Shown here: positions 1 to 32,946 of the stretch, piece by piece
Layout of the letters: every line of letters starts with the position of its first letter
Numbering within the stretch: the first letter of the stretch is position 1
Notes under the pieces: model-generated
What the model saw: only the letters and a program-made list of their open reading frames with translations
Told to the model about the DNA's origin: nothing
Databases searched by the model: none
NCBI GenBank assembly: GCA_963708025.1
Contig: CAVPSB010000035.1
Coordinates: 10,800 to 74,799 of the forward strand
Source of the DNA: an uncultured Candidatus Rokubacteria bacterium
GTDB taxonomy: Bacteria > Methylomirabilota > Methylomirabilia > Rokubacteriales > DASRDR01
Direction: 5' to 3'
DNA length: 64,000 nucleotides
Translations under genes and position numbers: made by a program

Positions 1-617
1 TCACGGTCCGCCTCGGCGTGACGGCCACCGTCGAGCGCGTCCTGGCCGACCGGCCCGACGCGGTGATCGTGGCGACCGGCGCGGTGCCCCGCCGCCCCGA
101 GCTGCCCGGGGTCGATCTGCCCGGCGTGGCGACCGTGGAGGAGCTGCTGCTGGGCGGGGCGACGCTGGCCGGTCCGCGGTGCCTCGTCGTCGACGGCACC
201 GGCCGGATCCAGGCCGGCCTCGCCGCCGACCTCCTCGCCCGGGAGGGCCGGGCGGTCACCGTCGTCACGCCGTACCACACGGTCTGCGACAACACCGAGC
301 CCTCGACCCGGGAGCCCCTCTACGAGCGGCTCTATCGCGCGGGCGTCACCCTGGTGCCCGACACGATGCTGGCCGGGATCGAGGCGGCCGGCGGCGGTCG
401 GCTCCGTGTCCGCTGCTGGAGCGAGTACTCCGGGCGCGCGTGGACGATCGAGGACCTCGACACCGTCGTCCTCGCCTGGGGCGGGCGGGCCGTGGACGGT
501 CTCTACCGCGGGCTCGAGGGCCGGGTGGCCGAGCGCCACCTGGTGGGCGACGCCATGGCCCCACGGCTCCTCCACGACGCGCTCCTCGAGGGGACGCGCG
601 CCGGCCGCCGCGTGTGA
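1..617 (+). CDS. C-terminal FAD/NAD(P)-binding part of an NADH:flavin oxidoreductase / 2,4-dienoyl-CoA reductase-like enzyme (5' end off-window)
   Basis: ORF 18..617 stays open to base 1. The translation (VIVATGAVPRRPELPGVD ... LVGDAMAPRLLHDALLEGTRAGRRV) parallels the C-terminus of the next gene. Confidence 0.7.
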   Translation, partial: TVRLGVTATVERVLADRPDAVIVATGAVPRRPELPGVDLPGVATVEELLLGGATLAGPRCLVVDGTGRIQAGLAADLLAREGRAVTVVTPYHTVCDNTEPSTREPLYERLYRAGVTLVPDTMLAGIEAAGGGRLRVRCWSEYSGRAWTIEDLDTVVLAWGGRAVDGLYRGLEGRVAERHLVGDAMAPRLLHDALLEGTRAGRRV

Positions 618-627
618 TCGAGGGATC

Positions 628-2592
628 GTGAGCGGGACGCCGTTCCCCCGGCTCTTCAGCCCGCTTCCGCTGGGCCCCCGGATCGCGCGGAACCGGATCG
701 TCAGCACGCCCCACACCACCGGGTTCGCCGTCGACGGCTTCCCCCGGGAGCGCTGGCTCGCCTACGAGCGCGAGAAGGCGCGCGGTGGGTGCGGGACGAT
801 CATGATGTTCGGCTCGGCCTCGGTCCACCCGAGCTCGCCCGTCGCCGCCGCCGGTGGGGTCGAGCTGTGGGACCCGGCGGTGGTGCCGCACCTGCGCCGT
901 ATGGCCGAGGCCGTCCACGCCGAGGGCGCCCTCTGCCTGGCCCAGGTCTCGCACTGGGGCCGGGGCGGGGTCGGGCCCTACGCCGACTGGCCGCTGCTGG
1001 CGCCGTCGGACGAGCCCGACGAGACGCACCACGGGATCCCGCGCGCTCTCTCGAAGGCCGAGATCCACGAGCTGGTCGACGCGTTCGGCCGCGCGGCCGC
1101 TCACGTCAAGCGCGGGCGGCTACGACGGCGTGGACCTCTCCTGCTGGGGCGGGCACCTCACCGAGCAGTTCCTCTCGCCGGTCAGCAACCGGCGGACGGA
1201 CGAGTACGGCGGCTCCCTCGACAACCGCATCCGGTTCTGCCTGGAGACGCTGGAGGCGGTGCGCGCCGCCGTCGGGCCCGACCTGATCGTCGGCGCGCGG
1301 CTGACCGGCGACCAGCTCGTGGAGGGCGGCCTGACCCTGGAAGACACCCAGGCCATCGCCGCCCGGCTGGCGGCCACCGGCCGGCTCGACTACGTCACGG
1401 TGAGCGGCGGCTCGACCGAGCAGTACCGCGCGCTCCCCTACGTCACCCCGACCTACTACGCGCCGCTCGGCCTCTACAACCGCTTCGCCGCCGCGGTGAA
1501 GGCGGTCGTGCAGGTCCCGGTCATCGTCGCCGGGCGGATCGTCCATCCCGCCCAGGCCGAGGAGGTGCTGGCCCAGGGCTGGGCGGACGCCGTCGCCATG
1601 ACCCGCTCGCTCATCGCCGACCCCGCGCTGCCCCGGAAGGCGAGGGACGGGCGGGTGGACGAGATCCGGATCTGCACCGGAGCCAGCGAGGCCTGCATCG
1701 GCCGGCGCATCCAGGGCAAGACGATCGCCTGCATCCAGAACCCGGCGATCGGCCGGGAGGCGGAGCTGGCCGACGTCCGCCCGGCCGACCGCGCGCGCCG
1801 GGTCGTGGTGGCCGGCGGCGGCGTCGCGGGGCTGGAGGCCGCCCGCCTGGCGGCGCGGCGCGGTCACCGGGTCGTCCTCTTCGAGGCGGCCCTCGAGCCG
1901 GGCGGCCAGCTCCGCGCGGTCTGGCGCTCGCCGGCGCGCCAGAGCTACCAGGAGGTCGTGCGCTGGCTCGTCGCCGAGGTCGGGCGGGCAGGGGTGGAGG
2001 TCCGGCTGGGGACCGAGGCGACGGCCGCGTCGGTCCTGGCCGAGCGGCCTGACGTCGTCGTGGTCGCCACCGGGGTCCGCCCTCGCGCGCTCGAGGTGCC
2101 CGTCGCGCCGGACGCCCACGTCGTGACCGCGGAGGACGTGCTGCTCGACCGCGTCGCGCCCGGGCCCCGGTGCCTGGTCGTGGACTACCACGGCCACATG
2201 CCGGGGCCGAGCGCCGCCGAATTCCTCGCCGACCGCGGGTGCCGGGTCGAGATCGCGAGCCGCTTCTTCACCGTCGGCGAGGACATCGACCCCCGGCTCA
2301 AGACCAGCGTGTACACGCGGCTCTACCAGAAGGGCGTGGTGCTGACGCCCCTGGCCGTGGTCCGGGAGATCGGCGCGGGCTGGGTCCGGCTGGCCAACAC
2401 CCTGACCGGCCAGGAGCGGGTCGTCGAGGTGGACACCGTGGTCACGGCCCTCGGCGGCCGGGCGGACGACGCCCTGGCGCGCGGCGCTCGACGGCCAGGG
2501 CCGTCGAGCTCCACGTGGTGGGCGACGCCCTGGCGCCGCGCACGATCCACGACGCCATCCTCACCGCCACCCGCGCCGCCCGGCGCTTCTGA
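628..2592 (+). pseudogene. Old-yellow-enzyme (FMN) plus FAD/NAD(P) domain oxidoreductase, 2,4-dienoyl-CoA reductase family; frame broken about 3 times
   Basis: GTG at 628 follows GAGGGA. The N-terminus (VSGTPFPRLFSPLPLGPRIARNRIVSTPH...) lies in ORF 406..2052. The core (GYDGVDLSCWGGHLTEQFLSPVSNRRTDEYGGSLDNR...VVVAGGGVAGLEAA) lies in ORF 854..2656. The end (VVGDALAPRTIHDAILTATRAARRF) lies in ORF 2170..2592. Frame changes are near 1112, 2487 and 2505. Confidence 0.8.
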
Positions 2593-2667
2593 CCCAGCGG
2601 GGCCGGGCATTGATGAGGGGTCGTGGTTCTTCCGCATAAAAGAGTACGACGAATGACGGAGGCGAAT

Positions 2668-2925
2668 ATGGCAACCAACGTCAAGATCACCAGCCGCCCT
2701 GCTGGCGTGATCCGGCATGCCGGTACTGCGATCCGCTCGGTCAGCCCTGGCGTGATCGCGAAAGCGCTCGGGGCCGAGAAGGCTGTATCCAGGGAGAACG
2801 TTCTCGGCGCTCCGATTAGTCTGCACGCATTGCGACGGGCGCTGGAGAGCCGGGTTCGCTCCACGGGCGGGCGGCCGGCTCTGGAAGGGGCAACGAAGAT
2901 CCAGAAGATTCCGCTGAGAGCCTGA
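2668..2925 (+). CDS. hypothetical small protein; possibly the N-terminal part of a frameshifted ribbon-helix-helix-like protein
   Basis: ATG at 2668 lies 5 nt after GGAGG, inside ORF 2623..2925. The region is less G+C-rich than its flanks. After the stop, the +1 frame reads EDWSRLEELAAQLSQEGVSATAGQVASVMVHSQLQL (2924..3106). Confidence 0.3.
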   Translation: MATNVKITSRPAGVIRHAGTAIRSVSPGVIAKALGAEKAVSRENVLGAPISLHALRRALESRVRSTGGRPALEGATKIQKIPLRA

Positions 2926-3139
2926 AGACTGGTCTCGACTCGAAGAGTTGGCCGCCCAACTCTCTCAGGAAGGCGTCTCGGCTACAGCTGGACAGGTCGC
3001 GAGCGTAATGGTCCACAGCCAGTTGCAGCTCGTCGCACCATCAGCCACGCGCCAAGGGAGAACCTCTCGACGCCCGGCGACGCGGCGGGTAACCGGACAT
3101 CGATGATCACTCGTAGCCCAGGGGCTGCCGCTAGCCACA

Positions 3140-3297
3140 TTGATCTCACTGCATTCGGATACATCGTTCGCGACGACGCCCTGGCCCGCGCGCTCGACGG
3201 GCAGGGCCTCGAGATCGACGTCGTGGGCGACGCCCTGGCGCCGCGCACGATCCACGACGCCATCCTCACCGCCACCCGCGCCGCCCGGCGCATCTGA
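3140..3297 (+). pseudogene. stub B: orphan C-terminal ~50 codons of a flavin reductase paralogue
   Basis: Reads IDLTAFGYIVRDDALARALDGQGLEIDVVGDALAPRTIHDAILTATRAARRI with no upstream body. The last 63 nt (3235..3297) match 2530..2592 at 62/63. Confidence 0.75.
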
Positions 3298-3451
3298 CCC
3301 GGCGGGGCGCGCCACGATCCAGTGGCCGACGGCGAGGGTGCCGATGTGACGCGAGAAGCTCGCGCCCGATCCTCGCGGCAGACCCGGCCGCCAGGCGTGA
3401 CCGAGTGCGCGGCCCGCCAAGGGGTCGCGGGGACGGCAACCGGCGCCGGGC

Positions 3452-4384
3452 TCAGCGGGCCGTGGGGGGCGCCGCCCGGTTGACCACGGTCATGGCGGTC
3501 GCGATCATGGCGCCGATGTCGGCGACGTTGGCGGGCACGATCAGGCTGTTGGTGGTCCGGGCCAGCTCCCCGAACTTGGTGATGTACTGCTCGGCCACCC
3601 GGAGCTGCACCGCCTCGACGCCCCCGGGCACCTGGATCGACTCCGCGACCCGGCGGATGCCCTCCGCGGTGGCGGCGGCGATGGAGAGGATGGCCGAGGC
3701 CGCGCCCTCCGCCTCGTTCATCTCCTGCTGACGCTTCGCCTCGGAGGCCTTGATGACCTGCTGCTTCTGGCCCTCGGCCACGTTGACGGCGGCGTCCCGC
3801 TCGCCCTCGGAGGTCAGGATGACGGCCCGCTTCTCCCGCTCCGCCCGCATCTGCTTCTCCATGGCGGCCAGCACGTCCTTGGGCGGGGTGATGTTCTTGA
3901 TCTCGTAGCGGAGCACCTTGATCCCCCACGGCTCCGATGCCTTGTCCAGCTCGCTGACGACCTGGCTGTTGATTTGGGTGCGCTCCTCGAAGGTGCGGTC
4001 CAGGTCGATCTTGCCGACCTCGCTGCGCAGGGTGGTCTGGGCGAGCTGGCTGATGCCGAACATGTAGTCGGCCACGCCGTAGGAGGCACGCTCCGGGTTC
4101 ATCACCTTGAGGTAGAGGACGCCGTCGACGCCGACCTGGACGTTGTCCCGCGTGATGCAGATCTGCTCGGGGATGTCGACGGCCGTCTCCTTCAGGGAGT
4201 GGCGGTACCGGATGGCGTCGAGGAAGGGGATCAGCAGGTGAAAGCCCGCGTGGAGCGTCGCCCGGTACTTGCCGAGCCGCTCCACGACGTAGGCGCTCTG
4301 CTGCGGTACCACCCTCGCCGTCTTCGCGATGACGATGATGACCAGCACGGCGAGCACCACGAAGACGACCAGCGCTTCCGTCAT
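3452..4384 (-). CDS. SPFH/band-7 (stomatin/prohibitin-like) membrane protein
   Basis: 310 aa with an N-terminal TM helix, then VVPQQSAYVVERLGKY...GVDGVLYLKV...TLRSEVGKIDLDRTFEER...VLRYEIKNITPP and a coiled-coil tail. Confidence 0.95.
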   Translation of the reverse strand: MTEALVVFVVLAVLVIIVIAKTARVVPQQSAYVVERLGKYRATLHAGFHLLIPFLDAIRYRHSLKETAVDIPEQICITRDNVQVGVDGVLYLKVMNPERASYGVADYMFGISQLAQTTLRSEVGKIDLDRTFEERTQINSQVVSELDKASEPWGIKVLRYEIKNITPPKDVLAAMEKQMRAEREKRAVILTSEGERDAAVNVAEGQKQQVIKASEAKRQQEMNEAEGAASAILSIAAATAEGIRRVAESIQVPGGVEAVQLRVAEQYITKFGELARTTNSLIVPANVADIGAMIATAMTVVNRAAPPTAR

Positions 4385-4400
4385 GCGCCCCTCCTCGGGA

Positions 4401-4832
4401 CTACTCGGCGACGACGCCGAGGGTGAGCCCGTCCACGCGCGTCACGCGGCAGCGCTGCCCGCGAGCGAGGGTGGTCGAGCCGTCGTTGTGCGCGGTCCAC
4501 GTCGTGCCACGCAGCTCCACCTTGCCGACCGCGCCCGGCGCCAGATCCTCGATCGGGACGGCGATTTCCCCGACGACGCCGTCGATCACGGGCGCCGACC
4601 CTGGCCCCCGCGTTCGCGCGAGGAGCGGCCCGCGAAGCACCACGAGGGCCAGCACGGACACGACCGAGAACAGCAGCCACTCCATCCACGCCGGGCCGGC
4701 CAGGCCCAGGCCGGCCAGAATGCCCACGACGAGGGCCCCCGTCCCGAAGAAGAGGAAGAAGAACCCCATCGGCGTGAACAGCTCGAGCCCCACCAGCAGG
4801 AAGCCCAGGAGGATCCAGAGCCACCAGGTCAT
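4401..4832 (-). CDS. NfeD-family membrane protein, partner of the SPFH protein
   Basis: Internal ATG at 4832 (MTWWLWILLGFLLVGLELFTP...). TM helices are followed by a C-terminal OB-like GKVELRGTTWTAHN. It lies immediately upstream of the SPFH gene on the same strand. Confidence 0.9.
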   Translation of the reverse strand: MTWWLWILLGFLLVGLELFTPMGFFFLFFGTGALVVGILAGLGLAGPAWMEWLLFSVVSVLALVVLRGPLLARTRGPGSAPVIDGVVGEIAVPIEDLAPGAVGKVELRGTTWTAHNDGSTTLARGQRCRVTRVDGLTLGVVAE

Positions 4833-5016
4833 GCGCGCGCGAGCGTCGGCAGCCGGTCGATGGCGGCGCGAACGGCGCCCGTCACGCCCGGCATTCGAAG
4901 AGGAGTGCGTCGGCCACGGCGCGACGAGTCTAGCGGCCGGGCGTCCGGACGTCAACTGCTCGCATCCGGAGGCGCCTGCTCCGGAGGCGCCACCGGCGAG
5001 CGCCGGGCTCGTGCCG

Positions 5017-5230
5017 TTACCCGCCCCGTCGGCCCGGCGGGAAGATCACGAACGTCGTGCTTTCGCCGGGTCGCGTCTGGTAGCGGATCTGGCCCCCGTG
5101 GGTCTCGATGATCCGCTGGCAGATCGAGAGGCAATTGGCCGAACGCCAGTTGACCGGGAGCCTCTTCAGGCAGATCATCCGGCGCGTCGAGCGGCTCGCT
5201 GGCATCCGACGTGATCGAGAGACCCACCCG
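5017..5230 (-). pseudogene. fragment of a histidine-kinase HATPase_c domain (C-terminal remnant)
   Basis: ORF 5017..5304 ends ...ANCLSICQRIIETHGGQIRYQTRPGESTTFVIFPP, resembling the G2 box to the C-terminus of sensor kinases. There is no HisKA or sensor part upstream. Confidence 0.4.
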
Positions 5231-5429
5231 GGAGCGGAGGCGATGAGGAGCAGGGGTCGAAGCAGCGGAGGTGTCTCTGAACAGGGCCGTCGGATTGACC
5301 ACACTCACAAGCGCGAGGCTGCGGACGGTCCATGCGTCGCGAGCATGACTTTCCTCGACCTACCGGAAAGGATGAACGAGCTGGGCGACTGGGTGATCCG
5401 CCCGTTCAAACGCACGAGGGAGGGGAGAC

Positions 5430-6234
5430 GTGGGTCCATATCGGAAATCCCGGGCTGAGTCGATTCGCGTGCGCGTGTGGGGGCTCGGTGTCCTGTTCGC
5501 GGTCGCGCTGACGATCGCGTTGGCGTCGGCCGAGCCCGTCGCCGTCCGCTACGCCGAGACCGTCACCCACGGCTTCCTCGTGCTGCGCGGGGCGAACGGC
5601 GACGTCCTCGCCTATGGCGAGTTCGTGCAGGCGCCCATCGAGGGGCAGCGCATGGAGAGCCGCCTCGTGTTCCGCTTCAAGAACGGCTCCCTCTGGGACG
5701 AGACGGTGACGTTCACGCAGCAGAAGGTGTTCCGGCTGATGAGCTATCACCACATCGAGCGCGGCCCGTCCTTCCGCGAGTTCGACCGACGTGACCTTCG
5801 ATCGCGACACCGGCCGTTACCGAGCCAAGGTCAACGACAAGACCGACGACGGCAAGATCGAGCTGCCGGAAGACCTCCACAACGGGATCACGGGCACCAT
5901 TTTGAAGAACCTGACGCCCGGCACCGCCGCCGCCGGCCACATGTTCGCGTTCACGCCGAAACCGTACCGGCTCGACACCGAGCTGCGCGCGGAGGGCGAA
6001 GATAGGTTTTCCGTGGGCGACGTCGCGCGCACGGCCACGCGCTACCTCGTGAAGATGGAGCTGCGCGGTCTCACCGGCCTCGTGGCGTCGCTTATCGGCA
6101 AGGACCCCCCCGAGGTGCGCTACTGGATCACGACCGGGCCCGCGCCCGGGTTCGTGAAGTTCGAGGGGCCGATGTACCTGAAGGGCCCGCGCTGGCGCGT
6201 CGAGTTGACGGGGCCGCGCTGGCCCAAGCGCTGA
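5430..6234 (+). CDS. hypothetical secreted protein (one frameshift near 5788)
   Basis: A signal-peptide-like VRVWGLGVLFAVALTIALASA lies in ORF 5430..6005. The continuation VTFDRDTGRYRAKVNDKTDDGKIELPEDL... lies in ORF 5791..6234. Confidence 0.55.
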
Positions 6235-6668
6235 CTCAGCGCTCCGCCGGGCGCCTCGCGCAGCATCGCGATCAGGACCTCGCGGTTCTGCGCGGTTGTG
6301 GTGACCTCGCGCGGGAACGTGATGCGCGCGATCGACAGCGGTTGACGTCCTCGTTTGCCCGCGCTTTACCGGCTCGCGCCGGATCGTGGGCGCGGTGACG
6401 GGGCCCCACGCGGTGGGGCGGCTCCTGACGGCGCTCGGGCTCGCCGCGGAGCCGCCACCGGCCAGCTCCCGCCCGACCCGTTCCTGACCTTGCGGCCTTC
6501 GCCGCGCTCGCCGTTACCCCGGCGCCGGGACCCGCTCTGCCCGCGGCCCCGCCGGGGCCCCTCCCATCCCCGCGGCCCCGACCGTTGCCGGTCCGGCCCG
6601 AGCACGCTACACTCACGCGCATGAAGGTCGGGAGCCGCCCCGAGAGAAGCTCCCGATAGGAGGATCCG

Positions 6669-7970
6669 ATGGCCGAGGACACCGTCGTTGCTCGCCGAGG
6701 CTTCTTGCGCGTGGCCGCTGGTGCGACTGCTGCCGCCGGCGTCACGGGACTCCTGCCCCGGCGCGCGCGGGCCCAGGGACAGGCCGGGCGCGCGCTGAAG
6801 CTCGGATATGTGAGCCCGCAGACGGGGCCGCTCGCCGGCTTCGGCGAGACCGACAGCTTCGTGGTCGGCGGCGTGCGAAAGGCGGCCGGCAAGGGGCTCG
6901 CGATCCGCGATCGCACGCATCCCATCGAGATCCTCGTGCGCGACAGTCAGTCCGATCCCAACCGGGCGGCCGAGGTGGCGTCGCGCTTGATCCTGACCGA
7001 CAAGATCGACCTCATGCTGGTCGCGAGTACGCCGGAGACGACCAACCCCGTGGCCGATCAGTGTGAGGCCAACGGGATGCCCTGCGTCTCCACCATGTGC
7101 CCATGGCAGCCCTGGTTCTTCGGTCGCGGCGGCAAGCCCGAGACCGGTTTCAAGTGGACGTATCACTACTTCTGGGGGCTCGAGGACATCATCGGGGTGT
7201 TCGTCAACATGTGGAACACGCTGCCCACCAACAAGGTCGTCGGGGCCATCTGGCCCAACGACGGCGACGGCAACGCCTGGAGCGACAAGCAGCGCGGCTT
7301 CCCGCCCGAGCTCGCGAAGGCCGGGTACAAGGTCGTGGACCCCGGGCGCTATCCGAATCTGAGCGACGACTTCTCCGCGCAGATTTCCACGTTCAAGAAC
7401 GAGAAGGTCGAGATCGTCACCGGCGTGCCGCTGCCGCCGGACTGGACGACCTTCTGGAAACAGGCCGCCCAGCAGGGCTTCCGCCCCAAGATCGCCACCG
7501 TCGGCAAGGCGCTGCTCTTCCCGCGCTCGGTCGAGGCGCTGGGCGAGCTGGGCGACGGCATGTCCACCGAGGTGTGGTGGTCGCCCCAGCATCCCTTCAA
7601 ATCGTCGCTCACGGGAGCCACGGCGAGTCAGCTCGCCGCCACCTATACGCAAGAGACGAAGAAGCAGTGGACCCAGCCGCTCGGCTTCATCCATTCGCTG
7701 TTCGAGGTCGGATTCGACGTGCTCAAGCGGGCGAGCAGCGTGGACGACAAGAACGCCGTGCTCGCGGCCATCAAGGCGACCAGCCTCGACACGATCGCCG
7801 GGCCCGTCAGCTGGGGCAAGGGGCCGGTGGCGAACGTGACCAAGACGCCGCTGGTCGGCGGCCAGTGGGGGCGCGGCAAGGGCGTTCCCTTCGACATGAC
7901 GGTCGTCACCAACCGGAGCGCGCCCAGCATCCCCACCTCCGGCAAGCTACGGCCGCTCAAGCAGGCGTAG
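6669..7970 (+). CDS. branched-chain amino acid-type ABC transporter substrate-binding protein (type 1 PBP) with Tat signal
   Basis: 433 aa. Contains RRGFLRVAAGATAAAGVTG and LKLGYVSPQTGPLAGFGE. AGGAG precedes the ATG. Confidence 0.9.
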   Translation: MAEDTVVARRGFLRVAAGATAAAGVTGLLPRRARAQGQAGRALKLGYVSPQTGPLAGFGETDSFVVGGVRKAAGKGLAIRDRTHPIEILVRDSQSDPNRAAEVASRLILTDKIDLMLVASTPETTNPVADQCEANGMPCVSTMCPWQPWFFGRGGKPETGFKWTYHYFWGLEDIIGVFVNMWNTLPTNKVVGAIWPNDGDGNAWSDKQRGFPPELAKAGYKVVDPGRYPNLSDDFSAQISTFKNEKVEIVTGVPLPPDWTTFWKQAAQQGFRPKIATVGKALLFPRSVEALGELGDGMSTEVWWSPQHPFKSSLTGATASQLAATYTQETKKQWTQPLGFIHSLFEVGFDVLKRASSVDDKNAVLAAIKATSLDTIAGPVSWGKGPVANVTKTPLVGGQWGRGKGVPFDMTVVTNRSAPSIPTSGKLRPLKQA

Positions 7971-7998
7971 TCCGACGGCGCTTCTCGCGCTCGAGGAG

Positions 7999-8697
7999 GT
8001 GTCCCGGGCGTTCGGCTCGCTGCGGGTCCTCGATCGCCTCACGCTGGCCGTCGGCGAGAACGAGGCGGTGGGTGTCATCGGGCCGAATGGCGCCGGCAAG
8101 ACGACGGCACTCCACCTGATGGCCGGACGCCTCCGCCCCGATCGCGGCCGGGTCGTGTTCGACGGGCGCGACATCACGGGGATGCCGGCTCACACCCGCT
8201 GCCGGGCCGGCATTGCGCTGACGCACCAGATCCCGCATCCCTTCGAGGCCCTGACGGTGTTCGAGAACGTCCTGGTCGGCGCCACGCACGGCGGCGGCCG
8301 GACCGAGCGCGACGCCTATGCCGTCTGCCTCTCGACCCTCGAGCTGGCCGGGCTCACCGACAAGGCGAACGTGCGCGCGGGTGTGCTGACGTTGCTCGAA
8401 CGGAAGCGCCTGGAGCTGGCGCGGGCGCTCGCGACCGGACCGCGCGTCCTCCTGCTCGACGAGATCGCGGGCGGGCTGACCGAGCACGAGGTGCAGGAGG
8501 TGGTCGGCGTCGTCCGGCACGTCCGTGCGCAAGGTGTCGCGATCCTCTGGATCGAGCACATCGTTCACGCGCTCCGCTCGGCCGTGGATCGGCTCGTCGC
8601 CATCCACCTCGGGAGGAGTCTGATGGACGGGCCGCCGGACGCCGTCATGGCGAGTCCCGAAGTGCAGCGGGTCTACCTCGGAATCGACGTGGCGTGA
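7999..8697 (+). CDS. livG: ABC transporter ATP-binding protein, LivG-like
   Basis: Walker A GPNGAGKTT, LLLDEIAGGL, and its position in the liv-type operon. The true start may lie upstream, but no start codon is visible there. Confidence 0.85.
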   Translation: MSRAFGSLRVLDRLTLAVGENEAVGVIGPNGAGKTTALHLMAGRLRPDRGRVVFDGRDITGMPAHTRCRAGIALTHQIPHPFEALTVFENVLVGATHGGGRTERDAYAVCLSTLELAGLTDKANVRAGVLTLLERKRLELARALATGPRVLLLDEIAGGLTEHEVQEVVGVVRHVRAQGVAILWIEHIVHALRSAVDRLVAIHLGRSLMDGPPDAVMASPEVQRVYLGIDVA

Positions 8698-9392
8698 CAC
8701 TGCTCGCCGTCCGCGACCTGTCGGCGTTCTACGGCGACTTCCAGGCCCTCTTCGGCGTCGCGCTCGACGTGGCCGAGGGCGAGACGGTGGCGGTGATCGG
8801 CGCCAACGGCGCCGGCAAGACGACGTTTCTCAGAGCGCTGGCCGGTGCCCTGCCGGTGGCTCGCGGCGCCGTCGTGTTCGCGGGCCGGCCGGTCGGCGGC
8901 CAGCCGCCGCACGTGCTCGTCGACCTCGGCATCGTCCTCGTGCCCGAGGGGCGGCGAATCTTTCCGAGCCTGTCCGTGCAGGAAAACCTTCAGATCGGCG
9001 CCTTCCGGCGGCGCGCCGGGCCGTGGACGCTCGAGCGCGTCTACCGGCTGTTCCCCGTCCTCGGCGAGCGACGCGATCAGCCCGGCACGAACCTCTCGGG
9101 GGGCGAGCAGCAGATGCTCGCGATCGGCCGCGGCCTGATGGCCAACCCGCGCCTCCTGCTCGTCAACGAGATGTCGCTCGGCCTGGCGCCGCTCGCCGTC
9201 AAGCAGCTCTACGAGGTGCTGGCCAGCGTCCAGCGCGAAGGGACCACGCTCCTGGTGGTCGAGGAGGACGTGAGTCAGGTTCTGGCGGTCGCGCAGCGTG
9301 TCTACTGTTTCCGCAAGGGGACTGTCTCGCTCGAGGGCGCACCCGCCGGGCTCAGCCGCGCCCAGATCTCGGCCGCGTACTTCGGAGCCTGA
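8694..9392 (+). CDS. livF: ABC transporter ATP-binding protein, LivF-like
   Basis: GANGAGKTT, LSGGEQQMLAIGRGLM, LLLVNEMSLGLAP. It overlaps the preceding gene by 4 nt. Confidence 0.9.
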   Translation: MTLLAVRDLSAFYGDFQALFGVALDVAEGETVAVIGANGAGKTTFLRALAGALPVARGAVVFAGRPVGGQPPHVLVDLGIVLVPEGRRIFPSLSVQENLQIGAFRRRAGPWTLERVYRLFPVLGERRDQPGTNLSGGEQQMLAIGRGLMANPRLLLVNEMSLGLAPLAVKQLYEVLASVQREGTTLLVVEEDVSQVLAVAQRVYCFRKGTVSLEGAPAGLSRAQISAAYFGA

Positions 9393-9395
9393 TCG

Positions 9396-10268
9396 ATGGC
9401 CTGGCTCGACACCGTCGTGCAGGGCGTCCTGCTCGGCGGCCTCTACGCGCTCTTCGCGACCGGGCTCTCGCTGATCTTCGGCGTCATGCGCCTGGTGAAC
9501 CTCGCCCACGGCGACTTCAGCATCCTGGCGGCCTTTCTCGCCGTCGTCGTCGTGGGGGCCCTCGGGCTCAACCCGCTGGTCGCGCTGGTCGTGGTGGTGC
9601 CCGTCATGGCGATGCTCGGCTACGTGCTGCAGCGGCTGGTGCTCAACCGGCTGCTGGGGCGCGGCATCCTGCCGGCCGTGCTCGTGACGTTCGGCTTCTC
9701 CATCGTCATCCAGAACGGCCTGCTCGAGACGTTCTCCGCGGACTCCCAGCGGCTCAACCCCGGCGGCATCGAGACGGCGAGTCTCGCCCTCGGCGGGGGG
9801 CTGGCCGTCGGCTGGTTTTCGTTGCTGACGTTCGCGGTGGCCGTCGGGCTCCTGGTCGGGCTCCAGCTCCTCATCGGCCGCACGGCGATCGGCCGCGCCT
9901 TTCGGGCGACCTCGGACGACGGCGAGACGGCGGCGCTGATGGGGATCGACACCCGGCGACTCTACGGACTCGCGATGGCGCTGTCGCTGGCCATCGTCGC
10001 GGTCGCCGGGGTCTTCCTCGGCATCCGCACGACCTTCACGTTCGCGAGCGGCCCCGACCGGCTCCTCTTCGCCTTCGAGGCGGTGATCATCGGGGGGCTT
10101 GGCTCCTTGTGGGGCACGCTGGTCGGCGGCGTGATCCTCGGCGTGGCGCAGACGATCGGCGCGAAGCTCTCGCCGGGCTGGGGCGTGCTGACCGGACATC
10201 TGGTGTTCCTCGGTGTCCTGCTGTTGCGCCCGTCCGGTCTGTTCGCGAAGTCCCGGCGCGTGGACTGA
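9396..10268 (+). CDS. livH: branched-chain amino acid ABC permease, LivH-like
   Basis: 290 aa polytopic protein (MAWLDTVVQGVLLGGLYALFATGLSLIFGVMRLVNLAHGDF). Confidence 0.9.
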   Translation: MAWLDTVVQGVLLGGLYALFATGLSLIFGVMRLVNLAHGDFSILAAFLAVVVVGALGLNPLVALVVVVPVMAMLGYVLQRLVLNRLLGRGILPAVLVTFGFSIVIQNGLLETFSADSQRLNPGGIETASLALGGGLAVGWFSLLTFAVAVGLLVGLQLLIGRTAIGRAFRATSDDGETAALMGIDTRRLYGLAMALSLAIVAVAGVFLGIRTTFTFASGPDRLLFAFEAVIIGGLGSLWGTLVGGVILGVAQTIGAKLSPGWGVLTGHLVFLGVLLLRPSGLFAKSRRVD

Positions 10269-11278
10269 TGGCGCCCGCCACCCTGGCGGTCGAGCGCACC
10301 ACCCGGGCCAGCCGCGCCGGCGCGGTCGGCGCCGCTGTCCTGCTCGCCGGGCTGATCGCCCTGCCGTTGACGCGCGACGCTGGACTCATGCGTATGGTCG
10401 TCGAGCTCATCGCGTTCCTGGTGCTGGCGCAGATGTGGAATCTGCTTGCCGGCTATGCGGGCCTCGTCTCGATCGGGCAGCAGGCGTACGTCGGCCTCGG
10501 CGGCTACGCGCTCATCGTGCTGGCCGACGATCTCGGGGTGAATCCGTTCCTCGCGGTGCCTCTCGCCGGCGTGGCGGCGGCCGGATTCGCCCTCCCCACC
10601 GCCGCGCTCGTGTTCCGCTTCCGCGGCGGCTACTTCGCGGTCGGCACTTGGGCGGTCGCCGAGGTCTATCGGCTGCTCATCGCCAACACGACGGCGCTCG
10701 GGCGGGGCACCGGGCGCACGTTGAAGGCGGTGTTCCCGCTCGTCCGGGAGACGCGCGAGCTGGTGACGTATGGCCTCGCCGTGGCGGTTGGCGTCGGCGC
10801 GATGGTCGCCGTGTACTTCTACGTGCGCTCGCGCCTGGGTGTCGGTCTGATGGCCGTTCGTGACAGCGAGCCGGCGTCGGAGAGCCTCGGCGTCAACGTG
10901 TTTCGCACCAGGCTCACGGTCTATCTGATCGCGGCCTTCGGAACGGGAGTGACGGGCGCGCTCATCTACCTGAACCTGCTCCGTATCTCGCCCGACGCGG
11001 CGTTTTCGATCAACTGGACCGCCTACACGATCTTCATCGTCGTGATCGGCGGTCTCGGCACGCTGGAGGGACCGATCGTGGGCGCGGTCGTCTTCTTCCT
11101 GCTCCGCGAGCTGCTGGCCGACTACGGCGCCTGGTACATGATCCTGCTCGGCTCGCTCGCCGTGCTGACGATGATGTGCTATCCGCAGGGCCTGTGGGGT
11201 CTGGTCGCCGAGCGGTGGGATCTGCATCTCTTCCCGGTGCAGCGACGCGTCAGGATGGGCGCAGCCGCGAGGCGATGA
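10268..11278 (+). CDS. livM: branched-chain amino acid ABC permease, LivM-like
   Basis: ATG at 10268 overlaps the livH stop (ATGA). Contains LAQMWNLLAGYAGLVSIGQQAYVGLGGY, taken from the long ORF 9023..11278. Confidence 0.85.
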   Translation: MAPATLAVERTTRASRAGAVGAAVLLAGLIALPLTRDAGLMRMVVELIAFLVLAQMWNLLAGYAGLVSIGQQAYVGLGGYALIVLADDLGVNPFLAVPLAGVAAAGFALPTAALVFRFRGGYFAVGTWAVAEVYRLLIANTTALGRGTGRTLKAVFPLVRETRELVTYGLAVAVGVGAMVAVYFYVRSRLGVGLMAVRDSEPASESLGVNVFRTRLTVYLIAAFGTGVTGALIYLNLLRISPDAAFSINWTAYTIFIVVIGGLGTLEGPIVGAVVFFLLRELLADYGAWYMILLGSLAVLTMMCYPQGLWGLVAERWDLHLFPVQRRVRMGAAARR

Positions 11279-11346
11279 CGAGCGCCGCGACGGAGGTGAG
11301 CTCCGTCGGATACACTTGGGTCCCCATCCCCCCGCCGCGCCCGCCC

Positions 11347-11409
11347 CTGGCGCCGCGCACGATCCACGACGCCATCCTGACCGCCACCTGCGCCGCCCGG
11401 CGCATCTGA
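11347..11409 (+). repeat. stub C: third copy of the last 63 nt (including stop) of the flavin reductase gene
   Basis: 61/63 identical to 3235..3297. Reads LAPRTIHDAILTATCAARRI-stop, with no homologous coding sequence upstream. Confidence 0.85.
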
Positions 11410-11468
11410 CGAGGCCGGGGCGCCCTGTTGTCTTGCACAAGTGCCATCGTCGTATTACACTGGTCGGC

Positions 11469-11720
11469 GTGAAGACCCTCACCGTGCGATTGCCCGAGGC
11501 CCTGGTCGCGGAGATCGAAGCCGAGTCTCGCGAACGTCGGCGCTCGAAGTCCGACGTTGTTCGGGAACGCTTGAGCCGCGTCGCCGGGCCGCGCGCGAGG
11601 CCCGCGTCCCCGGCCATTGCCGATCTCGTGGGCTCGGTCGGTGGGTTGCCGGCCGATCTGAGTGGGCAGAAGAAGGCCTACTTGAAGACCACGGGTTATG
11701 GCCGGAAGCGCGCTCGTTGA
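11469..11720 (+). CDS. vapB: ribbon-helix-helix (CopG/VapB-type) antitoxin
   Basis: GTG at 11469. Reads VKTLTVRLPEALVAEIEAESRERRRSKSDVVRERL. It overlaps the PIN gene by 23 nt. Confidence 0.8.
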   Translation: MKTLTVRLPEALVAEIEAESRERRRSKSDVVRERLSRVAGPRARPASPAIADLVGSVGGLPADLSGQKKAYLKTTGYGRKRAR

Positions 11721-12108
11721 CGCCGGTTTTCTGATCGCCCTTCTGAGCCGCCGGGACCGCCATCACGCATGGGCGGCGGCCCAATCCCCGGGTCTTGCCC
11801 CGCCTTGGAAAACCTGCGAAGCGGCCCTCTCGGAGGCCTTCCATCTTCTCGGGGCTCGGGGCCGACCTAGCCTCGCCACGCTTCTTCGCCGCAGCGCTGT
11901 GGTCTCCGCCTTCGACCTCACGGACGAACTGGACCGAGTCTTGAATCTCATGCAGAAGTACGCCGACGTCCCGATGAGTCTTGCGGATGCCTGCCTCGTG
12001 AGGATGAGCGAAACCCTGGCCGATCCTGTCATCCTGACCACCGATGCTGATTTCCGCATCTATCGCCGCCACGGTCGTCACGTTGTTCCCTGCGTGACCC
12101 CGTACTGA
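11698..12108 (+). CDS. vapC: PIN-domain ribonuclease toxin VapC
   Basis: 136 aa. Contains ALVDAGFLIALL...CEAALSEAFHLL...MSLADACLV...ILTTDADFRIY, the acidic PIN signature. Confidence 0.85.
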   Translation: MAGSALVDAGFLIALLSRRDRHHAWAAAQSPGLAPPWKTCEAALSEAFHLLGARGRPSLATLLRRSAVVSAFDLTDELDRVLNLMQKYADVPMSLADACLVRMSETLADPVILTTDADFRIYRRHGRHVVPCVTPY

Positions 12109-12168: not shown

Positions 12169-12353
12169 CCTACTCCGGTGGCGGAATGAGATTCAGCAGG
12201 GGGCTCGTCCCGGGTGGCCATCTCCGCCCGCGCCACGTTGACGAGGACGGCGGTCGGCTTCATGGCCCGAAGCTCGCGGTCCCGACGAGGCCGCGGGTCC
12301 GGGGCGTGAGCGGCAGCGCGAGCGCCGGGTAGTCGGCGCGCCTCAGCACGCTG
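12169..12353 (-). pseudogene. internally deleted remnant of the 3' third of the 2-hydroxyacid dehydrogenase gene
   Basis: Aligns to 13212..13262 and 13482..13616 of the intact gene, with about 219 nt missing between. ORF 12078..12434 contains LRAMKPTAVLVNVARAEM, versus LRAMKPTALLVNVARAEI in the intact gene. Confidence 0.8.
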
Positions 12354-12554: not shown

Positions 12555-13049
12555 ATGACGATGTACTGGAAGGAGATCACGGTCAACTGGGGTGAGTCCG
12601 ACCCGTTCGGGCTCGTCTACTACCCCCGGATCGTCGCCTGGTTCAACGACACCGAGCACGAGCTGTTCCGGACCATCGGCTACCCGATCGAACAGATGAT
12701 CAAGAACGATCGCACGACCTTCGTGATGGGCGAGATCCACTTCCGCTTCATCGGCCCCGCCGCCTACGGCGACCGGATCATCACGACCATCACGCTGGCC
12801 GAGATCGGCGAGCACACGCTGCACTGGAACTGCAAGGCCAAGAACGCGCTCACCGGCGCGGAGGTCAGCGAGGGCCGGGCCACCCGTGTGTACGCGCGCA
12901 TCAACGAGGACGGCACGCTGAAGGCACACCCCATCCCGGAAGAGATGCGGAGCGCGCTCCGCGAGCTGGGCGATCTCAAGCATCTCCGGCCGAACAGCGG
13001 GCCGTCCAAGCTGCCGGCCGCGAGCCACCTGCGGCAGCAGCCGCCCTAG
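12555..13049 (+). CDS. 4HBT/YbgC-like acyl-CoA thioesterase
   Basis: ATG at 12555 follows AGGGGGA. Reads MTMYWKEITVNWGESDPFGLVYYPRIVAWFNDTEHELFR, a hot-dog fold signature. Confidence 0.8.
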   Translation: MTMYWKEITVNWGESDPFGLVYYPRIVAWFNDTEHELFRTIGYPIEQMIKNDRTTFVMGEIHFRFIGPAAYGDRIITTITLAEIGEHTLHWNCKAKNALTGAEVSEGRATRVYARINEDGTLKAHPIPEEMRSALRELGDLKHLRPNSGPSKLPAASHLRQQPP

Positions 13050-13052
13050 ATG

Positions 13053-13205
13053 CTTCGGGGGGGTGTCGGAACACCCCCCCGATGCCCCCCCGCCGTTGCG
13101 CCGGCGAAGCCGGCGCTCGGAGCGCTGTTCGATGCACGCCTCGCGGATCGACTTTCGCGAGGCTACGCCGACACGCCCTAGGCCATTTCGGGAGGCTCGG
13201 AAAGC
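13053..13205 (-). repeat. REP-A element (inverted orientation) with G7-hairpin core
   Basis: cttcgggggggtgtcggaacacccccccgatgcccccccg... aligns to the reverse complement of 18091..18210. Confidence 0.7.
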
Positions 13206-13213
13206 CCTTGGTC

Positions 13214-14195
13214 CTACTCCGGTGACGAGATCTGATTCAGGGGGGGCTCGCCCCGCGCGGCCCGGTGGATGTTCTCCGCGATGAGGGTCGCGCGCGCCTC
13301 CACCATGCCTTCGGTCCAGCCGGACACGTGCGGCGTCATGAGGACGTTCGGCAGCTCGTGGAACGGCCGTTGCGCGGGCAGCGTCGGGTGGGGATCGGAC
13401 GGGTACCGGTACCAGACGTCGAGGGCGGCGCCCGCGATCCGCCGCTCGGCCAGCGCCTCGTAGAGCGCGTCCTCGTCGACGATCTCCGCCCGCGCCACGT
13501 TGACGAGGAGGGCGGTCGGCTTCATGGCCCGAAGCTCCGGGTCCCCGAGGAGGCCGCGGGTCTCGGGGGTGAGCGGCAGGGTGATCGCCAGGTAGTCGGC
13601 GCGCGTCAGCACGCTGCTCGAGGGCGTCGGGCCCCCGGAGGACGACGAGGCCCTGGCGGTCGGGCTGCGTGGCGTCGCGGCGGATCGCCAGGACCGTCAT
13701 GTCGAACGCCCGGGCGCGCCGGGCCAGGGCCTGGCCGATCCGGCCGTAGCCGAGGATGCCGAGCGTCTTGCCGGCCAGCTCCGGCCAGGGCGCCGGGGGC
13801 GGCGCCGACACCGCCCACTGGCTCTCCCAGTCTCCGCGCCGGAGGCGGGCGTCGAGGCGGCAAAAGCCGCGGCTCAGTGCCAGCATGGCCCCGATCACGT
13901 ACTCCGCGATGCCGCGCTCGTGGCCATAGGCATTCGCCAGCCACGTGCCGGGCGAAAGCGCGGCTCGGTCGATCCGGTCGAGGCTGGCGCCGGGCACCTG
14001 GACGAGCCTGAGGCGTTGGGCCGACGCCCCCATCTCGCGGGTGAACGCCATGCTGACGAGGACGTCCACATCGGGAAGCGGGGAGCCGATCCCGGCCTCC
14101 TCGTCCACGACGACGTCGCACGGGATCGCCAGGTGGGACCGGATTGGCTCCGCGAGGCGGGCCGCGAAGACACCGGCGAAGGCGACGCGAAGCAT
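13214..14195 (-). CDS. D-isomer-specific 2-hydroxyacid dehydrogenase (glyoxylate/hydroxypyruvate reductase-like), one frameshift near 13615
   Basis: The N-terminus MLRVAFAGVF...GKTLGILGYGRIGQALARRARAFDMTVLAIRR lies in ORF 12519..14270. The C-terminus LTRADYLAITLPLTPETRGLL...LMTPHVSGWT lies in ORF 13214..13612. Confidence 0.85.
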
Positions 14196-14281
14196 GCTTG
14201 GCCATCTTGTTCGGCAACGACCAGGGATGCAATTACCTGGCAGGTAATGTCCGCCAAAGGCTGCCGGCATATACTGGCGGG

Positions 14282-18063: not shown

Positions 18064-18090
18064 AGCTCGCGACCCCTGATCCGCCGCCCG

Positions 18091-18210
18091 TCGGCTTCTC
18101 GCAACGCTCCAACTCCGGCCTCACGGCCTAGGCGTTCCACTCCGAGCCGCGGCTTCGCCGCGGCCTCCGGGGGGGGCATCGGGGGGGGTCTTCCCAGACC
18201 CCCCGAAGAA
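18091..18210 (+). repeat. REP-A element (about 120 nt) between the permease and binding-protein genes
   Basis: tcggcttctcgcaa...ccgagccgcggcttcgccgcggcctccggggggggcatcggggggggtcttcccagaccccccgaag. It aligns along its length with 47015..47133. Confidence 0.8.
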
Positions 18211-19089
18211 CTAGATCGGGGGGAAGCCGGGCTTTCGGTCGGGCGGCTTCACGCCGAAGAACTCGTCGAGGGCGGCGTCGTATATGTCGTTCTGGTGTCC
18301 GAACATGGCCACGGTGAACGTCGTGTTGACCCACTGCTGCCAGTCGGGGTCGCCCTGCCGCATGGCGGCACCGTAGAGCATCGAGTTGTAGCTGTGCCCG
18401 GCGTCGACGTACCTGGTCGCGTCCCGCTTGACCAGCCAGCGGACGGTGGACAGATCCACCACCCCCACGTCGGCTCGCCCGGAATCGAGCGCCTGGATGA
18501 CGTTGGCCTGGGTGTCGAGCTGCATCACCTGGGCCTGGGGCAGCGCCTTGTGCACCAGCTTGTCGGCGTCAACGTTCTGGAGCACGGAGGCCCGGACGCT
18601 CTTGCCGGCGGCCGTGAGCGCCTTGAAGGTCTTGTGCTTGCCCTTGGGCGAGGTGAGGAGGGCGGCGCCCTCGACGTAGTAGGGCCGGGAGAACGCCACC
18701 AGCTGGGCCCGGGCTGGCGAGATGGTCATGAACTGGATCACGATGTCCACCTTGCCGGTGGTGATGTTGGGAATGCGCGCGGCCGGGTCCTGCTTGACGA
18801 ACTCGACCTTCCCGGCGTCGTCGAAGAGGCCCTTGGCCAGGATCCGGGCCATGGTGATGTCCATGCCGGTGAGCTGCCCCTTGTCGTCCTCGAAATGCCA
18901 GGGGGCGTTCGTGCTCCCGGTTCCGACCATCAGCTTGCCCCGATCGAGCACGGTCCGGAGCAGGCTGTCGGTGCGCGCCTGCGCGTAGGCCCGCCGCGGT
19001 GAGAAGGCGGCGCCGGCCGACGCGACGCCGGCCGCGAGCCCCAGCCCGCCCAGCTTGAGGAGATCACGACGCTCTGTGGATCGATCCAT
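18211..19089 (-). CDS. polar amino acid ABC transporter substrate-binding protein (family 3) with Tat signal
   Basis: ATG at 19089 follows GGAGGGAGG. Reads MDRSTERRDLLKLGGLGLAAGVASAGA...LMVGTGSTNAPWHFEDDKGQLTGMDI. Confidence 0.9.
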   Translation of the reverse strand: MDRSTERRDLLKLGGLGLAAGVASAGAAFSPRRAYAQARTDSLLRTVLDRGKLMVGTGSTNAPWHFEDDKGQLTGMDITMARILAKGLFDDAGKVEFVKQDPAARIPNITTGKVDIVIQFMTISPARAQLVAFSRPYYVEGAALLTSPKGKHKTFKALTAAGKSVRASVLQNVDADKLVHKALPQAQVMQLDTQANVIQALDSGRADVGVVDLSTVRWLVKRDATRYVDAGHSYNSMLYGAAMRQGDPDWQQWVNTTFTVAMFGHQNDIYDAALDEFFGVKPPDRKPGFPPI

Positions 19090-31778: not shown

Positions 31779-32888
31779 ATGGCGGAAGCGCGGCTGAACC
31801 TGCCCTTCACCGGGCTCGTGTCCTTCATGCGCGTCCCGGCCTGCACGGATCTCACGGCCATCGACGCGGACATCGCGATCCTGGGCACGCCGACCGACGA
31901 GGGCTCGCCGTGGAAGCCGGGCGCCCGCTTCGCGCCGCGGAAGATCCGGGAGCTGTCGGTCAAGTACGCGGGGTACGGGCCGACGCAGAACCAGCTCGGC
32001 TACTACGACATCGAGGAGGACCGGCGCTACCTGGAGTACGAGCGGCAGCACCGCCGCATCGTCGACTGCGGGGACTCCGACATCATCTACACCAACGTCC
32101 GGCGCACCTTCGACAACATCACGCGCGACGTCAAGGCGATCCTGAAGGCGGGGGCCTTCCCGGTGGTCATCGGCGGCGACCACGCCGTCACCTACCCGGT
32201 CGTCCGGGCCTACCAGGAGCGGCTCAACGTCGTCCACTTCGACGCCCACCTGGACTACCGGCCGTTCATCCACGGGGTGCAGTGGGCCAACGGGAATCCC
32301 ATCCGGAACGTCTCGCAGCTCAAGAACTGCCACCACATCATCCAGGTCGGCATCCGGAGCCTCCGCACGAGCCAGGCCGACGTGGCGGACTCGCGGGCGC
32401 GCGGGAACGACGTCGTGACCATCCCCGAGTTCCGGCGGCGGGGTCACCAGGCCATCGTCGACCGGCTGCCCAAGGGCGAGCCGGTCTACGTCTCGATCGA
32501 CATCGACGTCCTGGACCTGCCGCTGGTTCCGGGGTGCGCGTCGTCGGAGGTGAACGGGCTCACCTACGACGAGCTGCGCCAGACGCTCTTCGCCATCGCG
32601 CGGAGCCGGGAAGTCATCGGCTTCGACCTGGTCGAGGTGAACCCGATGCTCGACGTGGCCTCGGACAACACCTCGCTGATCGCCGCCCAGCTCATCATCG
32701 AGTTCCTCGGGCGGATCGTCGAGCACCCGGGCTACCGCAAGCGCCACCCCATGCGCGAGGCCGCCCCCACCAACGGCCGCGGCCGCCCGGCGCCGGGCCG
32801 GCCGGCGCCGGCGACCTCCTCGGACGGCGGCCGTCTGCGGACCGGCAGCGCCCGGGTGGGAGCCGCCCGCTCAGCTCGAAGGCGGTGA
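31779..32888 (+). CDS. arginase/agmatinase/formiminoglutamase-family ureohydrolase
   Basis: Contains ILGTPTDEGS, GGDHAVTYP, HFDAHLDY, SIDIDVLD and GFDLVEVNP, the Mn-binding motifs. Confidence 0.9.
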   Translation: MAEARLNLPFTGLVSFMRVPACTDLTAIDADIAILGTPTDEGSPWKPGARFAPRKIRELSVKYAGYGPTQNQLGYYDIEEDRRYLEYERQHRRIVDCGDSDIIYTNVRRTFDNITRDVKAILKAGAFPVVIGGDHAVTYPVVRAYQERLNVVHFDAHLDYRPFIHGVQWANGNPIRNVSQLKNCHHIIQVGIRSLRTSQADVADSRARGNDVVTIPEFRRRGHQAIVDRLPKGEPVYVSIDIDVLDLPLVPGCASSEVNGLTYDELRQTLFAIARSREVIGFDLVEVNPMLDVASDNTSLIAAQLIIEFLGRIVEHPGYRKRHPMREAAPTNGRGRPAPGRPAPATSSDGGRLRTGSARVGAARSARRR

Positions 32889-32946
32889 GCGCCTCCTCTG
32901 GCTGCTTCATGCTGACTACCCCCCGGGGTATACTCCGAAGCAGAGT

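Follow-up and report, generated by a model that had tools for sequence, protein, structure and literature searches.

The Flavin Reductase Gene and the Three Copies of Its 3′ End

We analyzed a stretch of 64,000 nucleotides (nt) from contig CAVPSB010000035.1 of an uncultured Candidatus Rokubacteria bacterium (assembly GCA_963708025.1), referred to here as the window, in which the end of a metabolic gene is repeated behind the gene itself. This gene encodes a flavin reductase of the FadH/OYE type with Oxidored_FMN and Pyr_redox_2 domains (623–2592, plus strand; 653 amino acids, aa, once three extra bases are removed). Its last 63 nt, with the TGA stop codon included, are found at 2530–2592 (copy A, the end of the gene), 3235–3297 (copy B), and 11347–11409 (copy C), in each case on the plus strand. 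A preliminary description of this DNA had reported such a triple gene end in direct orientation, and it is real: the core coordinates and strands agree with gapped self-BLAST, and no chance match to the core was obtained in 100 dinucleotide-preserving shuffles of the sequence. The cores of A and B are identical at 62/63 positions, those of B and C at 61/63, and those of A and C at 60/63. Thus, the value of 62/63 given earlier for A and B stands, whereas the 61/63 given for the third copy holds against B only and not against A.

By gapped self-BLAST, copies A and B correspond over 139 nt (2465–2603 vs. 3172–3308, 93.5% identity, two single-base gaps), that is, over the core, about 65 nt on its 5′ side, and 11 nt after the stop codon, which matches the arms described before. 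Together with the alignments, this delimits copy A as the gene-attached 3′ end with 11 nt past the stop (2465–2603, plus strand) and copy B as a stub (3172–3308, plus strand), a displaced 3′ end of the reductase with 125 coding nt in frame with the orthologues and with retained post-stop flank. The B/C repeat spans 79 nt (3233–3310 vs. 11345–11423, 93.7% identity) and consists of the core, 2 nt upstream of it, and about 14 nt of post-stop flank; stub C, an older displaced reductase end, was delimited by core search and self-BLAST to the same elements at 11345–11423 on the plus strand. The longest exact runs are 69 nt between A and B and 34 nt both between B and C and between A and C. A 34-nt exact core is common to all three copies, and homology starts at different points, so that the repeat comes to 139 nt for B and 79 nt for C.

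The 63-nt core codes for the most conserved C-terminal motif of the reductase protein. Its near-perfect preservation needs no function as an attachment (att) site, and it is also the place where a homologous crossover would fall. A hairpin spans the reductase stop codon, with the stop in its loop, and all three insertions start 11–17 nt after the stop, at the 3′ foot of this hairpin. Several short motifs recur near the boundaries. The 8-nt GGCCGGGC stands at the end of copy A (2596–2603) and just before the repeat unit within the gene (2457–2464), and GACGCCCTGGCGC is found at the left boundary of both stubs, with two occurrences in the reductase gene. A third motif, TCGGATACA, occurs exactly twice in the window, 17 nt upstream of stub B (3155–3163) and 39 nt upstream of stub C (11306–11314), and is statistically weak, given that a search with at most one mismatch yields 8 matches where about 6 are expected.

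Upstream of the reductase lies the 3′ part of a tandem paralogue (3–617, plus strand, Pyr_redox_2 match), which self-BLAST aligns to reductase positions 2033–2592 at 66% nucleotide identity. A 70%-identical fourth “copy” of the gene end at 524–628 is the end of this paralogue, and the order of paralogue and then reductase is kept in relatives. The three extra single bases in the reductase frame lie at about 1117, 2484, and 2503, and they are missing from copy B, from all orthologues, and from L094, a 3.8-kb metagenome contig. Once stitched, the 653-aa reductase aligns along 100% of its length, at 97% identity, with a metagenome protein that is also 653 aa long (P0001). Single-base frameshifts are present throughout the window (1117, 2484, 2503, ~2925, ~5790, ~13640, and 36400–41000), and they split the reductase three times as well as the open reading frame (ORF) of block 1, a secreted protein, a dehydrogenase, an Amidohydro_3 gene, and a Peptidase_M24 gene. 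L094 has 1-nt deletions of its own in the SPFH and NfeD genes relative to the window. Judging from these alignments, the 1-nt indels in the window are probably long-read consensus errors rather than marks of pseudogenes. We do not claim pseudogenization of the reductase, as the window and L094 differ by 1-nt indels that go both ways.

The DNA between and behind the Copies

Block 1, between copies A and B, is a foreign insert of 568 nt and 62% GC (2604–3171, plus strand) that is not present in L094. It had been described as less G+C-rich than its surroundings, and indeed its values of 62–65% compare with 71–80% in the flanks; the small inserts are lower in GC than the genome. No codon-phase signal in third-position GC (GC3) was seen in block 1. 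Its ORF had been called RHH-like, which the Pfam scan does not bear out: there is no Pfam match, and the product is instead a conserved hypothetical protein. Block 1 contains the last 12 codons of a truncated first gene, followed by a complete gene for a 145-aa hypothetical protein (2668–3106), split in the window by the 1-nt frameshift at about 2925, whose family has 201 members and no Pfam domain. In other genomes this gene stands second in an operon of two genes (136 aa and 150 aa, with a 4-nt overlap). Window positions 2614–3127 are 94.7% identical to positions 1341–1853 of one such locus (L110), with homology that begins 39 nt before the end of gene 1 and stops 21 nt after gene 2. Because the homology starts inside gene 1 of this foreign two-gene module, block 1 is a random piece of foreign DNA and not a self-contained cassette.

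Block 2 (3311–11344, genes on both strands), between copies B and C, was defined by Pfam matches and translations; L094 has the left end in common with it, and four other loci (L106–L109) the right end. Its gene content is as previously described, namely SPFH (3452–4384, minus strand), NfeD (4381–4824, minus strand), a C-terminal remnant of a histidine kinase (~5017–5200, minus strand; the HATPase_c G2-box region, ending in LSICQRIIETHGGQIRYQTRPGESTTFVIFPP before the stop), a secreted protein split by a frameshift (5430–6234, plus strand), and LivK/G/F/H/M (6669–11278, plus strand). Its 70% GC, its SPFH/NfeD genes, and its liv operon give block 2 the look of ordinary host DNA. The kinase remnant is an orphan gene-end stub inside the block, with no partner copy in the window. 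Directly after copy C, as had been noted, comes vapBC (11441–12108, plus strand), whose VapC has a PIN domain by Pfam and belongs to a very abundant family (7634 matches).

Relatives with and without the Blocks

The first comparison is with L094, which at 95.5% nucleotide identity aligns to window positions 476–2592 and then without interruption to 3171–4945. It carries the reductase, a single gene end, and directly behind it SPFH/NfeD, which makes it an exact empty site for block 1. Relative to L094, the window has 705 additional nt, which correspond to the 568-nt insert and one repeat unit. The comparison suggested in the preliminary description, for a genome with block 2 directly behind the reductase end, is answered by this contig: stub B is contiguous with block 2 in the window, and the equivalent in L094 is the single, gene-attached end followed by block 2. 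Where the copies differ within the repeat, L094 agrees with A at the middle sites but with B at the last site and in the flank downstream, and this mosaic, first A and then B, fits one crossover inside the 69-nt identical core. An empty site in L094 is, however, expected under the rival models as well.

A second relative, the 75.8-kb contig that encodes protein P0002 (93% aa identity), has the order paralogue, reductase, 4HBT_2 thioesterase, YceI, and ABC transporter, in which the thioesterase and the transporter correspond to the window at 12558–13049 and from 15947 onward. By gene-order comparison, the DNA from 2593 to about 12500, including vapBC, is absent from this contig. The third comparison is with strain R (L106–L109), found in four samples at 95–98% nucleotide identity, in which LivM is followed by a 76-nt spacer, vapBC, another spacer of 53 nt, and the thioesterase. 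In the first of these spacers the coding part of stub C is gone; after the sequence ending in GCGACG there follows AGGCGGGGCGCGCCCTG, which is the reductase post-stop flank. Moreover, the 13-mer GGCGGGGCGCGCC, which has its single occurrence in the window at B, is kept in strain R at the place of stub C. The simplest reading of these sequences would be that a stub already present in the common ancestor lost 117 nt in strain R through a microhomology deletion (GACG / GACGAGG). A motif resembling TCGGATACA lies in inverted orientation at the corresponding place in strain R (L107, 237–243, minus strand). Also in L107 (1554–1642), a 43-nt remnant of the 3′ end of a dehydrogenase gene, treated below, is fused to a 48-nt remnant of an MmyB-like regulator gene and adjoins a YceI gene that the window lacks; these fused remnants again point to the region as a hot spot of indels.

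Among the more distant orthologues (L001–L004, L010, L013, and L095), unrelated genes follow the reductase, which marks the site just behind it as a recurrent synteny breakpoint. One base in the repeat is informative in this context: at ATCCTGACC, stub C and the distant orthologues keep an ancestral G, and A, B, and L094 have C. In a synteny comparison with GTDB species representatives, among which Candidatus Rokubacteria (Methylomirabilota) MAGs come closest, the reductase alone matches (81–83% identity), with nothing downstream, and a search of metagenome contigs with the core returned orthologues of up to 87% identity, none of them syntenic. A search for loci based on SPFH was uninformative, since this protein varies too little between phyla. 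None of the relatives compared (L094, the P0002 contig, and the other orthologue loci) has a full-length reductase copy where the stubs lie, and the arrangement that the preliminary description had named as refuting its reading thus did not turn up.

The Same Layout at Other Genes

Gene ends that are duplicated around an insert are not confined to the reductase. Downstream of vapBC, the 3′ end of a 2-hydroxyacid dehydrogenase gene (13213–13616, minus strand) is repeated at 12169–12353 (minus strand) as a stub with a 219-nt internal deletion and a 1-nt deletion, and the two copies lie around a gene for a 163-aa 4HBT_2 thioesterase (12558–13049, plus strand). The full dehydrogenase gene (13214–14232, minus strand) has its 2-Hacid_dh_C domain split between two frames, and the frameshift at about 13627–13658 is near the repeat boundary at 13616, a detail that we cannot explain. 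The thioesterase is 82–93% identical across many Rokubacteria and Methylomirabilota metagenome-assembled genomes (MAGs) and 69–82% identical in proteobacterial MAGs (loci L121–L200), in a different gene context each time, which suggests frequent horizontal relocation of this single gene.

Further along the window, the 3′ end of an agmatinase gene (31779–32888) and the adjoining intergenic sequence (32664–32905) are repeated at 33549–33718 with about 94% identity. These repeats bracket a single gene for a Uma2-family endonuclease (32947–33546), and the proximal copy has about 68 extra nt. The layout is also present in independent assemblies. In another Rokubacteria MAG (L003), a 99-nt gene end is duplicated (4639–4737 and 5894–5992) around what is, by sequence inspection, a DmpA-like peptidase gene, and in a betaproteobacterial MAG (L189) the last ~50 nt of a gene for an 1100-aa protein are duplicated (5816–5865 and 6509–6560) around a thioesterase of the same family as that in the window. 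In all such cases the proximal copy ends 0–30 nt after the stop codon. Brackets of this kind are generally rare: two comparison sets of other loci, one of 1.4 Mb and one of 0.77 Mb, have about 5 each, where some are tandem repeats or repeat elements, and the window has 4. No bracketing duplications were seen around other copies of vapBC, and among 73 other thioesterase loci L189 is the only one that has them. The brackets are therefore not a regular feature of vapBC or thioesterase insertions.

Three further features of the window may be recorded here. An intergenic repeat family with a G7/C7 hairpin (GGGGGGGTCTCGGAAGACCCCCCC...), which resembles a repetitive extragenic palindromic (REP) element or a terminator, is present at 13055–13124, 18088–18214, 45118–45157, 47012–47133, and 63695–63776, one copy being situated between the thioesterase and the dehydrogenase. 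A 5-kb segment at 49100–54200 has 61–65% GC and lacks a codon-phase GC3 signal; a DUF5670 protein and a cupin are all that was recognized in it, no mobility gene was seen, and it is probably foreign or degraded DNA. Finally, two ABC_sub_bind genes (33774–34722 and 35392–36349), 66–72% identical, are inverted relative to each other and flank a DUF1989 gene.

Search for Mobile-Element Machinery

Pfam scans that took in essentially all coding segments of the 64-kb window gave no integrase, transposase, excisionase, or reverse transcriptase, and no tRNA or match to an Rfam family was obtained. A search for conserved motifs at the insert ends gave noise only, the inserts sharing no ends, and no inverted repeats were found there. 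Several classes of element were rejected on these grounds. For a transposon or insertion sequence there is no transposase and there are no inverted repeats, and the duplications are 79–403 nt long and vary in length. Copies A and B differ by G/C, C/A, C/G, and T/A changes and by indels, and a diversity-generating retroelement was rejected because there is no reverse transcriptase and the mismatches are not confined to adenines. Integrons and Xer/dif systems were likewise rejected for lack of supporting features.

Order of Events and Proposed Mechanism

What follows the reductase varies by strain in this Rokubacteria population: it may be the thioesterase, vapBC, the block that runs from SPFH to liv, or the fragment that forms block 1. 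The insertions duplicate the gene end, are polymorphic among close strains, and come with neither recombinase genes nor defined ends. The gene itself stays complete and the new DNA lies directly behind it, with the former end and the old neighbor pushed downstream as a dead stub, and the stubs in turn decay by small deletions, as in strain R. Several lines of evidence place the youngest layer nearest the gene. Block 1 is private to the window, whereas block 2 and stub C are shared with L094, strain R, or both; the ancestral base is kept in C; and the P0002 contig is without vapBC. In this order, vapBC, which follows LivM in strain R, is the oldest of the three neighbors stacked behind the reductase.

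Based on this comparison, we propose, with a probability that we put at about one half, that additive insertions, one after another and each anchored on the 3′ end of the reductase gene, left the three copies behind as scars, a process that may be called 3′-end displacement. Incoming DNA would have carried the last 80–140 nt of the reductase, with the hairpin that spans the stop codon, joined to a new neighbor, and would have recombined with the resident gene through the homology of the gene end, either by a single crossover of a circularized fragment or with one homologous and one illegitimate end. Two rounds of insertion would then give the order A, block 1, B, block 2, C, and vapBC. Host recombination enzymes would suffice for this, and no recombinase encoded by an element would be needed. 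We infer the anchoring because three events at one position have nothing in common but the homology of the gene end. An anchor there explains why homology always stops where strains differ in the neighbors of the gene, and it predicts insertions that start, as these do, 11–17 nt past the stop. A block might also loop out again by homologous recombination between the direct repeats, which share 69 or 34 nt exactly; perfect identity over such lengths is probably enough for recombination of the RecA type. The first joining of block 1 to a reductase end must, in any case, have been an illegitimate join. The bracket formed by the dehydrogenase around the thioesterase would follow the same logic, in which case vapBC and the thioesterase were stacked from two convergent anchor genes.

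A number of observations weigh against this proposal. No donor arrangement, that is, a reductase followed by block 1 without stub B, was found, and the nearest relative of block 1 lies in an unrelated context. Sliding divergence against L094 is uniform along the reductase, with no donor tract visible, and A, B, and L094 lie at about equal distances from one another. Copy A has private changes clustered at its left end, two 1-nt insertions among them; this cluster is unexplained and may be consensus error, in an assembly that has many 1-nt indels. The density of scars in 64 kb is well above that of the comparison sets, an enrichment for which we have no explanation. Furthermore, the final structure alone cannot separate the integration of a circle from one-ended recombination or from duplication and insertion in situ.

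Alternative Explanations

The last of these is the alternative that fares best. A break or a stalled fork at the hairpin behind the stop could have been repaired by template switching or end joining, such that repair copied in foreign DNA and then resumed 80–400 nt upstream, leaving a long duplication of recipient sequence in one step. Block 1 is a truncated foreign fragment for which at least one illegitimate join is needed anyway, and this model needs only one event. The GGCCGGGC match gives the junction of A and block 1 the look of a tandem-duplication joint, short GC-rich microhomologies connect the two boundaries in other cases, and the right-hand boundaries all fall 0–30 nt after a stop codon, beside the hairpin in the case of the reductase. 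However, the model gives no reason why three successive insertions should have struck the same spot with the youngest nearest the gene. In addition, three clustered substitutions in a variable linker set B apart from A and L094 and look more like the allele of another strain than like neutral decay, and we know of no established outcome of bacterial repair in which templated insertions come with duplications of 80–400 nt. We regard in-situ duplication as possible but doubtful.

The preliminary description had favored an attachment or recombination core, and in its site-specific form this would make the locus a decayed tandem array of integrative elements that completed the reductase end and have since lost their integrase genes. 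Three direct copies with a 34-nt exact core do bracket two blocks, an exact empty site exists in L094, both stubs begin at GACGCCCTGGCGC, and TCGGATACA is found only upstream of stubs B and C. Set against this, Pfam scans over essentially every coding segment gave no integrase, excisionase, or transfer genes in the blocks or in the rest of the 64 kb, no tRNA was found, the inserts have no common ends, and the left boundaries of B and C differ. Block 2 is host-like DNA of 70% GC and block 1 is a 568-nt truncated piece of an operon; the coincidence of TCGGATACA is only weakly significant; and the same layout at three or four other, unrelated genes would require as many lost integrases of different specificity. 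We therefore consider attachment sites unlikely, although a “recombination core” in the RecA sense is plausible.

An artefact of assembly or consensus from a mixed-strain metagenome appears less probable still. Such an artefact would account for the large number of 1-nt frameshifts, of which two fall within copy A close to the repeat boundary, and for a density of bracketing repeats far above that at other loci; five window proteins are without an exact public match, and the junctions of block 1 with A and with B are known from this assembly alone. However, the copies differ by substitutions and not by indels alone, the flanks are unique sequence with real homologues (L094, L110, and L106–L109), at the position of C the reductase post-stop flank survives in four independent contigs, the layout recurs in the independent assemblies L003 and L189, and a repeat of 63–139 nt is too short for a long-read mis-join. 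The idea that the stubs are deletion remnants of full-length tandem paralogues, with the core homogenized by gene conversion, can draw on the real paralogue directly upstream and on the sharing of this pair by relatives, but it is contradicted by the data and extremely improbable, given that the paralogue is 66% identical where the stubs are 93–95% identical, that L094 differs by a clean 705-nt indel, and that no relative has reductase copies at the stub positions; the earlier view that the copies are not decaying paralogues is correct.

Relation to Known Systems and Significance

The geometry proposed here for insertions anchored on the reductase end has precedents in polymorphic toxin loci. 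In the displacement of Rhs C-termini, a single crossover of a circular intermediate carries in a conserved piece of the gene (Jackson et al. 2009, PMC2935791), and homology-facilitated illegitimate recombination was put forward for effector–immunity arrays of the type VI secretion system (T6SS) and for Rhs orphans (Kirchberger et al. 2017, PMC5361080; for background see PMC2884548). Both models give the geometry of the reductase locus. As in the displacement arrays of rhs, cdiA, mafB, and T6SS genes, the gene is intact and has 3′ fragments behind it in direct orientation, which vary in length and have conserved sequence in common with it; the newest insertion adjoins the gene, older ones have been shunted downstream, and there is no dedicated recombinase. 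Unlike in those arrays, the displaced tips are 95–98% identical to the resident end and are not alternative toxin tips, the anchor is a metabolic flavin reductase with no obvious selection for swapping, and the cargo (a fragment with a hypothetical gene, SPFH/NfeD with liv, and vapBC) is, apart from vapBC, unrelated to toxin–immunity pairs.

Three other systems invite comparison. Duplications of att sites that complete the target gene are known from phage 21 and e14 at icd, from the accretion of ICESt/CIME elements at fda, and from arrays of tRNA islands. The reductase locus resembles them in that a gene 3′ end is duplicated directly around an insert, three copies form an array, and relatives have empty sites, but it differs in having no mobility gene, no conserved ends, variable repeat boundaries, and one “element” that is a truncated fragment of 568 nt. 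With homology-facilitated illegitimate recombination it has in common that a one-sided homologous anchor brings in adjacent foreign DNA (PMC5361080, PMC2884548). Such an anchor explains why the insertion starts where homology to the gene ends. Experimental events of this type in transformable bacteria usually delete recipient DNA, whereas at the reductase the non-homologous join would fall inside the anchor and so produce a duplication. Lastly, the microcin H47 island is bounded by short att-like direct repeats, encodes no site-specific recombinase, and is excised independently of RecA (PMC5426353). Here too direct repeats bound an insert without a recombinase gene, and host functions must provide mobility; the repeats at the reductase, in contrast, are gene ends of 79–139 nt.

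The locus records gene gain clearly, though in a fairly ordinary way, and its value is that of a well-documented natural example. If our reading is right, an ordinary metabolic gene joins the polymorphic toxin loci from which the geometry of C-terminal displacement is known, and the locus would be an unusually legible record of gene addition without mobile machinery, with three layers behind one gene and with intermediate and decayed states surviving in related strains. A broader notion, which we hold only tentatively and think improbable as it stands, is that additive integration anchored on gene ends is a general, recombinase-free route of gene gain that is unusually active in this Rokubacteria lineage by way of looped-out circles. 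If a conserved gene ends in a stop-codon hairpin, any DNA behind it would then act as a cassette, looping out through the flanking gene-end repeats, and the circle would reintegrate behind the same gene in other strains by host recombination, so that neighbors are stacked and not replaced. On the first, narrower reading, stubs of gene 3′ ends could in practice serve to mark the date and order of gene gains in MAGs, and the locus would suggest that homology-anchored additive integration feeds the flexible-genome hot spots of an uncultured soil phylum with large genomes.

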